64,000 nucleotides of DNA, taken from Vulcanimicrobiales bacterium. Lineage in GTDB: Bacteria > Vulcanimicrobiota > Vulcanimicrobiia > Vulcanimicrobiales > Vulcanimicrobiaceae. This document shows, one piece after another, positions 34,641 to 35,266 of this stretch. The position numbers were made by a program, and so were the translations under genes. The notes under the pieces were generated by a model, which saw only the letters and a list, made by a program, of their open reading frames with translations, made no database searches and had not been told where the DNA came from. Each line of letters opens with the position of its first letter. Positions within the stretch are counted from its first letter, which is position 1. The stretch covers positions 51,922 to 115,921 of the forward strand of contig JBBRLI010000011.1 of the NCBI GenBank assembly GCA_038231455.1, written 5' to 3'.

Positions 34641-34667
34641 GGAACTCGCCGGATACCAACACTCGTT
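34641..34667 (+). promoter_or_regulatory. Possible ECF-type promoter of the Lys-rich micro-gene
   Basis: GGAAC-N18-CGTT. Confidence 0.35.
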
Positions 34668-34731
34668 GTCGGTATGGATGAGCGGTTCTTATGGACCGGT
34701 TGTATCTACAAAAATTAGGGGGTGATTTCAC

Positions 34732-34788
34732 ATGGCCGCCAAGAAAAAAGCAATGAAGAAGAAAGCAGCAAAGAAAGGAAAGAAGTAA
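34732..34788 (+). CDS. 18-aa Lys/Ala-rich micropeptide MAAKKKAMKKKAAKKGKK
   Basis: ATG preceded by AGGGGGTGA SD, TAA stop, downstream terminator; below the ORF-track length cutoff. Confidence 0.75.
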   Translation: MAAKKKAMKKKAAKKGKK

Positions 34789-34831
34789 CTTTCTTTCTTT
34801 CTATTCGATCAAGCAATAATTCGTAATTATT

Positions 34832-34860
34832 ACGCGGTCCCTCCGGGGGCCGCGTTTTTT
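34832..34860 (+). terminator. Intrinsic terminator after the micro-gene
   Basis: ACGCGGTCCC-TCCG-GGGGCCGCGT followed by a T run. Confidence 0.8.
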
Positions 34861-35266
34861 ATGCCCGCGCGGCCAGTTTGGCGAGGGACTCCGGCGCCGT
34901 CGAGGCGAGGCGCTCGGCCCGCTTCTGCACGAGCCACCCGGCCGCAAAACCGGACGTTTCGATCGTCTCTTGGATCCGCGTCCCCGTTCCCTCGGGGGCG
35001 AGCGTCCAGATTCGCCGCAGTTGCGCCGCCGGACCGAATTGCAGCCGGATGGCAAACCGCCGCTGCGACACCACGTCTTCGATCACGTAGGCGGTCTGCC
35101 GCCCGCGCGCCGGCTTGATCGTCAGGTACGCGCCGGGCGTCAGCGCCTCATCGACCCACATCCAAGCGACGTCGGCATTCCATTCACCCCAGCGCGGGCC
35201 GTCGATGAGCACGGTCCAGACCGCTAGCGGATCGGCAGAAGCCAGGGTCTCGTGGGTCCAGATCAT
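34859..35266 (-). CDS. SRPBCC/polyketide cyclase family protein
   Basis: ADPLAVWTVLID..RWGEWN; LAPEGTGTRI. Confidence 0.8.
   Translation of the reverse strand: MIWTHETLASADPLAVWTVLIDGPRWGEWNADVAWMWVDEALTPGAYLTIKPARGRQTAYVIEDVVSQRRFAIRLQFGPAAQLRRIWTLAPEGTGTRIQETIETSGFAAGWLVQKRAERLASTAPESLAKLAARA

Follow-up and report, generated by a model that had tools for sequence, protein, structure and literature searches.

The 64,000-nucleotide (nt) stretch of the Vulcanimicrobiales bacterium contig JBBRLI010000011.1 analysed here (the window, in whose numbering all positions are given) contains a plus-strand micro-gene for an 18-amino-acid (aa) peptide rich in lysine and alanine. The micro-gene is conserved among relatives, is under coding constraint and stands alone between its neighbours; RNA of the unit turns up in one RNA library. 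The sequence evidence makes it very probable that this is a real coding gene that is translated. The mechanism favoured for its product, at a little under an even chance, is that of a compositionally selected and abundant polycation, which would bind polyanions non-specifically. The initial annotation, made from the letters of the window, had described a complete stand-alone unit with a Shine-Dalgarno (SD) site, a frame from ATG 34732 to TAA 34788, a hairpin with a T tail and a palindrome; all of these elements were found again in place, and the counts of 10 Lys and 5 Ala among the 18 residues were reproduced.

The conservation of the unit was evaluated by a DNA search of 40 relatives and by a pattern search of the class. 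In the same-genus genome G001, the DNA search recovered the complete unit, at 88% over 269 bases and in an intact frame. The G001 orthologue is MAGKKKAMKKKAAKKGKK, and two of its three changed codons are synonymous replacements of AAA by AAG. Other genera gave shorter matches, covering the SD site and the open reading frame (ORF), as did a second family of the class. The class pattern, GGTG-N5-10-ATGGCN-N0-3-AARAARAAR, matched the start region in 47 of 201 genomes, and the reversed pattern used as control matched none (0/201). Among the 30 class loci fetched, 28 carry a micro-ORF of 13–25 aa with an SD site; one of the remaining two carries a 51-aa paralogue and the other has no micro-gene. 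Either GGGGGTG or GGAGGTG precedes every orthologous ORF. Orthologues were thus found in the same genus, the same family and the same class, with peptides such as MAMKKKVAKKKAAPKKK (G023), MAAKKKAKKKATKKKKK (G014), MAKKKKAAKKSKKKKH (G032), MAKKKKAAKKKKH (G076) and MAAKKKAAKKTTKKAAKKSKKAKKR (G035). The initial annotation had proposed that relatives be searched for the same frame, SD site and Lys content, and all three proved to be conserved, together with synonymous AAA/AAG variation.

The class and phylum tallies given here and below (the 40-relative search, the pattern search, and the bS22 and spermidine synthase searches) include the unpublished genomes G009, G020, G022, G036, G074, G144, G172, G189 and G201. 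Locus L039 of unpublished G074 supplies rows in alignments A1 and A2 and in the codon counts, and locus L047 of unpublished G189 supplies rows in A1, the codon counts, and the same-family alignment and fold. The GGAAA locus and one of the five pairings of the CU-rich tract described below rest on L047. The conclusions stand without the unpublished genomes.

Selection at the codon level was assessed in the codons that lie past the block fixed by the search pattern, which gave 355 codons from 29 unique coding sequences. AAG or AAA accounted for 214 of the 355, and no Glu, Asp or AGR codon occurred (0 in 355). Of the 216 purine-only codons, 149 have G at the third position, but only 2 each have it at the first and at the second. 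Because a purine-rich RNA element would not limit G to position 3, this restriction is the signature of selection for lysine. In addition, nearest-neighbour pairs differing by at most 6 bases showed 17 synonymous versus 5 non-synonymous codon differences, and all 18 nearest-neighbour pairs together showed 52 synonymous and 54 non-synonymous ones. Alignment A1 has the consensus MAxKKKAAKKxKKKKKK, and its only invariant columns, M1, A2 and K4–K6, are all fixed by the search pattern. Across the class orthologues, lengths range from 13 to 25 aa and charges from +8 to +14. The peptides of family f3 consist of AAKK/TTKK/AAKK units, that is (XXKK)n, with space for just 2–5 units. Since length and charge vary widely, the sequences point to selection on composition rather than on a fixed sequence or length.

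The micro-gene is also exceptional within its own genome (G000; 3.71-Mb assembly). Of the 41,715 small ORFs (8–50 aa) in G000, only 3 reach a Lys content of 35%; besides the micro-gene these are ORFs of only 8 and 11 aa, which makes the micro-gene the only long Lys-rich small ORF. GG[AG]GGTGA, the 8-base extended SD sequence, stands before a start codon at just 13 sites. Moreover, a six-frame scan for Lys-dense windows ranked the micro-gene first, with 10 Lys in 15 residues, and the next-ranked windows were tails of longer proteins. The small-ORF survey and the six-frame scan revealed no paralogue in G000, and the gene is single-copy. Separately, three long Lys/Ala/Thr/Arg repeat ORFs were observed in G000 outside the window, at G000:C1:147427 (+), G000:C8:26724 (-) and G000:C6:150985 (-). 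With their AKKT and GRKK units and open frames of 127–179 aa, they look like histone H1-like proteins.

Transcription was evaluated by comparing run X20 (an ice metatranscriptome) with runs X18 and X19 (probable DNA) and X2 (DNA). Four X20 contigs of 101–152 bases aligned solely on 34693–34841 at a likeness of at least 85%, with none on the flanks; the left flank was covered by the DNA-like runs X18 and X19 at ~87% identity. X20 comprises just 7.8 million letters of contigs. The parts of the stretch that it leaves uncovered prove nothing about expression. The X20 contigs reach 34693 and 34710 and then run upstream into relative-specific sequence. Their loose ends contain the relatives' GGGGGTGAGTATACA site ahead of the ATG and an AAG-AAG-AAG-TAG end. 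One contig starts 9 bases past the CGTT of a G001-like promoter motif, which is a weak hint that this start marks a transcription start site. Transcription of the locus had been put forward for checking in the initial annotation; RNA contigs of close relatives cover the unit and lend moderate support to transcription of the micro-gene. The DNA runs with a small word share were glacier and sediment metagenomes, of which X2 was the one compared, and they are no evidence of habitat.

A possible GGAAC-N18-CGTT promoter had been suggested in the initial annotation. The motif itself is present, and GGAAC-N17/18-CGTT lies 38–74 bases upstream of the ATG in five of nine same-family loci (G000, G001, G023, G296 and G304). 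One of the remaining loci has GGAAA and three (the G014 group) are without the motif. A simple sigma-70 scan found no promoter in the micro-gene region, and GGAAC-N18-CGTT is the only conserved promoter candidate; the motif resembles promoters of the extracytoplasmic function (ECF) type. In its strict form (N17/18), the motif occurs 96 times genome-wide in G000 versus 62 times for the reversed control. Autoregulation by an ECF sigma factor was considered and rejected, as none of the 22 sigma-factor genes of G000 has GGAA[CT]-N16-19-CGT[TCA] within 500 bases upstream. The leader of family f3 is of another kind and strongly conserved, with a 5-pair CUCCG/UGGAG stem that covers the SD site. This anti-SD stem is kept in all 19 sequences via wobble changes only (0 compensatory changes), and the f3 terminator is nearly invariant. 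Several look-alikes in other phyla, described below, have near-consensus sigma-70 promoters of the TTGACA-N16/17-TATATT type. Because the types of promoter and leader differ (ECF-like motif, f3 leader, sigma-70), regulation of the micro-gene differs by lineage, and what is held in common is a strong, self-contained cassette.

The elements of the locus are collected in Table 1. The spacer that holds the micro-gene is 336 bases long and lies between a divergent ABC ATPase gene and a convergent Polyketide_cyc2/SRPBCC gene, both on the minus strand. Its GC content is 0.36–0.40 at 34700–34849 versus 0.61 genome-wide, the sole AT-rich dip of the region.

Table 1. Elements of the micro-gene locus and its two flanking genes.
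Feature	Position	Strand	Remarks
ABC ATPase gene	real start ~34522	-	divergent neighbour
Promoter-like motif GGAAC-N18-CGTT	34641..34667	+	GGAAC 34641-34645, 18 bases, CGTT 34664-34667
Putative 5' untranslated leader, start approximate	34675..34731	+	metatranscriptome contigs
Extended SD site AGGGGGTGA	34717..34725	+	6-base spacer to ATG
Micro-gene coding sequence MAAKKKAMKKKAAKKGKK, 18 aa	ATG 34732 to TAA 34786-34788	+	10 Lys, 5 Ala of 18
CU-rich tract CTTTCTTTCTTTCT	34789..34802	+	pairs with last Lys codons and stop in minimum-energy fold
Palindrome AATAATT-CGT-AATTATT, small A/U hairpin ahead of terminator	34815..34831	+	sequence, fold
Intrinsic terminator, 10-pair hairpin 34832-34855 (8 G-C pairs) and T run to 34860	34832..34860	+	
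Polyketide_cyc2/SRPBCC gene	34859-35266, stop codon 34859-34861	-	convergent neighbour

The region from 34690 to 34865 folds with a z-score of -2.58, and 0 of 200 shuffles folded equally well. The minimum-energy fold reproduces the pairing of the stop region with the downstream CU tract that had been noticed at the outset. Pairing of this type with Lys codons was obtained in 5 of 8 same-family loci folded, whereas loci of family f3 have a small stop hairpin in its place. The palindrome is kept only partly in G001, and a terminator-like hairpin followed by a T run is also present 3' of the ORF in the downstream sequences inspected from relatives. The terminator hairpin of the window directly abuts the stop codon of the SRPBCC gene, and one hairpin at 34832–34861 may terminate the transcripts of the micro-gene and the SRPBCC gene alike.

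The neighbouring genes vary among lineages. An ABC ATPase gene is the neighbour in G000, G001 and G023, and in G000 this divergent gene is accompanied by two ABC-2 permeases. Family f3 has XdhC and a gene with a SpoIIE domain (minus strand) at this place, and G014 has an NMT1-like gene. When the flanking ORFs from 24 cross-phylum and 4 class loci were all clustered, no neighbour proved common beyond close relatives, and in the loci examined the micro-gene was never found beside ribosomal genes. Neither here nor in family f3 does a co-oriented gene follow downstream, and in both cases a convergent gene comes next. Attenuator leader peptides resemble the micro-gene in being short ORFs with a strong SD site followed by a terminator, but the micro-gene has neither a co-oriented downstream gene nor an alternative antiterminator, and its neighbours change. 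Because of the convergent downstream gene and the lineage-varying neighbours, a leader peptide or operon member was excluded.

The favoured mechanism can be outlined as follows. The micro-gene would be independently transcribed and translated into a peptide of lysine and alanine with a charge of about +10. After a Met-Ala start Met is generally removed and a stable Ala end remains; the invariant Met-Ala start of the micro-peptides would thus be processed in this way. Selection would keep many lysines, only small neutral spacers and no acidic residue. The cassette, which comprises the promoter-like motif, a structured leader, the extended SD site, the stop hairpin and the strong terminator, would be suited to high output. 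The peptide would bind cellular polyanions non-specifically, chiefly DNA and RNA and possibly polyphosphate, and would in effect be a minimal Lys/Ala tail, of the kind known from bacterial histone H1-like proteins, that stands on its own. Non-specific electrostatic binding appears likeliest because selection seems to act on composition, and not on sequence or length. Like protamines and synthetic oligolysines, which condense DNA, the micro-peptide is a short unstructured chain of high charge density, and the proposed action would rest physically on this; protamines, unlike it, are Arg-rich, eukaryotic and germ-line specific. The H1-like proteins (chlamydial Hc2/HctB, Pseudomonas AlgP and the H1-like domain of Streptomyces DdbA) are likewise built of short tandem units of Lys plus Ala, Thr or Pro, as in Hc2, for which PMC2848022 reports lysine-rich pentamers and DNA binding. 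The micro-peptides differ from them in having 13–25 aa versus 100–240 aa and no folded domain.

Several observations weigh against this mechanism. The spread of the micro-gene is patchy: in the class sample it was detected in 23 of 165 genomes of family f1 and in 23 of 32 of family f3, and in the phylum sample in 15 of 19 genomes of one f1 genus and in 0 of 59 of the largest genus. A looser Lys pattern applied to five genomes of the largest genus also found no micro-gene. Because the distribution is patchy, the function must be dispensable or replaceable. The X20 contigs come from relatives and from one small run; they give no ends, strand or level, and they may reflect DNA carry-over. Furthermore, the H1-like models (HC2 and NF038053) gave no match to the micro-peptides. 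These misses say little, because Lys/Ala ORFs of 82 and 129 aa likewise went unmatched (best H1-like expectation value (E) 0.24); the hidden Markov models are blind to Lys/Ala composition, long forms included. A last point concerns bS22, of which no canonical copy was detected in the class (0/41 genomes over the cut-off), so that its ribosomal pocket could be free for another peptide.

In other parts of the phylum sample, pattern matches also occur outside the class, and in the 12 such loci inspected the micro-gene was found in none; these matches are the N-termini of L33, IF-1 and other ordinary proteins. Other basic ORFs were observed in the relatives. The 51-aa Arg/Lys-rich ORF mentioned above, MAKKKAATKKRKRR...KKKH, lies at L029:1512-1664 (+) (G033:C32) and contains two short Val/Ala stretches, and a second copy is signalled at G032:C3:631744-631769. 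Its leader closely resembles that of the family f3 micro-gene, and it has an SD site and a terminator of the same design with a different sequence. From these sequence features it looks like an expanded paralogue. It gave no Pfam or NCBIfam match at E up to 10 and is absent from a collection of 15 billion proteins. In a genus with no detected micro-gene, L051 (G047:C5, ~398300-398600) encodes an 83-aa basic protein, MARRKKKSTSRKK...QAIAIGLSEARRAG..., of a different small basic family. In another relative, the region G048:C5:163789-165760 contains long A runs with 192 loose Lys-codon matches, nearly equalled by the reversed control, and is probably an assembly or read artefact.

The micro-peptides were compared with known families using orthologues of 20–25 aa in place of the 18-aa peptide of the window. 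Orthologues of 20, 23 and 25 aa matched 0 families of Pfam and NCBIfam at E up to 10, and exact copies of orthologous peptides (20–25 aa) were found for 0 of 6 in the 15-billion-protein collection. The latter result agrees with the expectation in the initial annotation that gene callers would miss the gene; callers of the Prodigal type generally cannot call such an ORF. A profile of 22 peptides gave 0 matches among 177,635 distinct PDB sequences at E up to 10, a search whose sensitivity is poor with a 17-position low-complexity profile. In Rfam 15, the best match of the window was sbrA (28.4 bits versus a threshold of 45), which reflects the terminator only, and the micro-genes of 20 related loci had no match. 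The open-access full-text literature searched held no description of a Lys/Ala micro-gene or of a genetically encoded bacterial oligolysine, and the word 'lysine' occurs 0 times in the sORFdb paper. An encoded substitute for polyamines was considered and rejected for lack of complementarity: 192 of 201 class genomes have spermidine synthase (PF01564), and it occurs both in the genus in which no micro-gene was detected (50/51) and in a genus that carries one (15/15).

Among the alternatives, the micro-gene might encode a dedicated tiny ribosomal protein, an analogue of bS22, eL41 or bL37 that would fill a pocket of ribosomal RNA; we consider this unlikely. Tiny polybasic ribosomal proteins do exist and escape annotation. 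According to PMC10618245, Borrelia bS22, which is encoded by 93 nt and has 61% Lys/Arg, had been missed by annotation, and the authors who discovered it anticipate further cases; bS22 is bound in a 16S h2/h27/h44/h45 pocket, described for Borrelia, mycobacteria and Flavobacterium, and contacts 23S H68. The micro-gene is like bS22 (NF047430/PF08213), eL41 and mS38 in being tiny, very basic, monocistronic and usually unannotated, and its strong cassette and the near-consensus sigma-70 promoters in other phyla would fit a ribosomal protein. With PF08213 and NF047430, 0 of 41 class genomes exceeded the cut-off for canonical bS22, the Corynebacterium control being positive, and a Streptomyces bS22 control scored 63.4 and 38.4 bits (NF047430 / PF08213). 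A whole-genome bS22 search of G000 gave weak matches only, none of them at the micro-gene. No contrast between bS22 presence or absence and the micro-gene was obtainable, as canonical bS22 was detected in none of these class genomes.

The features of the micro-peptides argue against a ribosomal protein. Whereas bS22 has ~30–33 residues with positionally conserved basic and hydrophobic residues, the micro-peptides lack this feature: they match no model, are shorter and of variable length, consist of Lys/Ala only without Arg, His or Leu positions, and show a patchy spread without positional conservation. The orthologues and the PDB profile remain without a match, lengths vary almost two-fold and charges from +8 to +14 within one class, searches of the largest genus did not recover the gene, and in the loci examined it never stands beside ribosomal genes. 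In contrast, bS22 tails are positionally conserved across a phylum, as illustrated by 37 actinobacterial bS22 tails (among the 120 matches listed from the collection scan below), which are near-identical and all of 21 aa. On sequence grounds, the data speak rather for a polycation selected by composition than for a fixed ribosomal protein.

A second alternative, which we regard as improbable, is that the peptide binds polyphosphate and organises its granules, as proposed for H1-like AlgP. The ECF-like motif would fit induction by stress. For Pseudomonas, PMC9239181 reports that AlgP, an H1-like Lys/Ala protein, spaces polyphosphate granules. Yet the sequence gives no preference for polyphosphate over nucleic acids, and the promoters in other phyla look constitutive.

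A function exerted by the RNA itself or by its translation, with the peptide a by-product, as in a small RNA, a leader-peptide attenuator or a sensor of lysine transfer RNA, is quite improbable. The leader and the 3' region are indeed structured (the f3 anti-SD stem, the stop hairpin and the fold z-score given above), and runs of AAR triplets would suit A-R-N binding of the Hfq type. However, no co-oriented gene lies downstream either in this locus or in family f3, a strong terminator closes the unit, no Rfam family reached its threshold here or in the 20 related loci, and the constraint matches Lys codons exactly, with G varying at position 3 alone, which is more than any purine-rich RNA motif would require. 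Export of the peptide, as a cationic antimicrobial or signal handled by the adjoining ABC-2 transporter, is very unlikely: the divergent ATPase and two permeases do adjoin it, and the ATPase recurs in G001 and G023, but this neighbour is confined to a subclade, is replaced in f3 and the G014 group and recurs in no other phylum, and the peptide lacks a signal sequence as well as any hydrophobic or aromatic residue. A functionless chance ORF in an AT-rich spacer, for which its shortness, low complexity and inaccessibility to most database tools could speak, is hardly credible given the class-wide conservation with a zero-hit control, the period-3 codon constraint, the uniqueness in the genome and the RNA contigs.

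The distribution of similar micro-genes beyond the phylum was assessed by scanning 185,579 species genomes with the pattern ATGGCN-N0-3-AARAARAAR-N12-42-AARAAR-TAR, the window's own records being left out. At least 120 stretches were listed and sorted by script, as a sample and no census. The 120 matches listed comprised 37 C-terminal halves of actinobacterial bS22, 26 Lys-rich ORFs of 12–22 aa and 57 others. The identity of the bS22 matches was confirmed with NF047430 (63.4 bits). As a side observation, the last 21 residues of actinobacterial bS22 have an internal Met-Ala-Lys-Lys-Lys start and a Lys-Lys-stop end; because bS22 tails start with MAKKK and end with KK-stop, patterns for Lys-rich micro-genes also collect bS22. 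Among the matches listed, 18 of the 26 Lys-rich ORFs have an SD-like site and 18 a terminator-like site, and by eye 24 of the 26 resemble stand-alone micro-genes. According to their record titles, the look-alikes belong to Acidobacteriota, Gemmatimonadaceae, Anaeromyxobacter, Phycisphaerae, Omnitrophota, Bdellovibrionales, Binatia, Dormiibacterota, Methylomirabilota, Saccharibacteria, Vogelbacteria and a Woesearchaeota archaeon. A group II intron (RF02005 109.8 bits, RF00029 53.1 bits) was noticed at L110:4960-5775 (-), ~4 kb from the Phycisphaerae look-alike.

Longer forms were found as well. In a Verrucomicrobia metagenome-assembled genome (MAG), L103:7280-7525 (+) is a stand-alone Lys/Ala repeat ORF of at least 82 aa with a MAKKK start and SD-like and terminator-like sites. 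A Spirochaetales MAG contains another at L133:38-424 (-), of at least 129 aa, with a MAKKK start and an SD-like site; its frame may extend past the end of the locus. These two loci point to a possible continuum of lengths that would run from micro-peptides up to H1-like proteins.

On this basis we propose, tentatively and with rather less than even confidence, that the locus belongs to a very widespread and never-annotated class of genetically encoded oligolysine peptides of ~12–25 aa, bacterial and perhaps archaeal, each with its own promoter, strong SD site and terminator. Such peptides would be selected for charge and composition, would tune the electrostatics of the nucleoid, the ribosome or polyphosphate, and could be regarded as a protein counterpart of polyamines. 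Tryptic proteomics would be blind to them, because trypsin would leave pieces of 1–4 residues. If the peptide is made at the level that its signals suggest, many uncultured and some cultured lineages would hold an abundant and unlisted nucleic-acid-binding factor that is absent from annotation, from proteomics databases and from models of the bacterial nucleoid or ribosome. The finding bears on whether the bS22/eL41 pocket is occupied in phyla without a known bS22 gene, and on how polyanions are neutralised and compacted in bacteria without classical histones.

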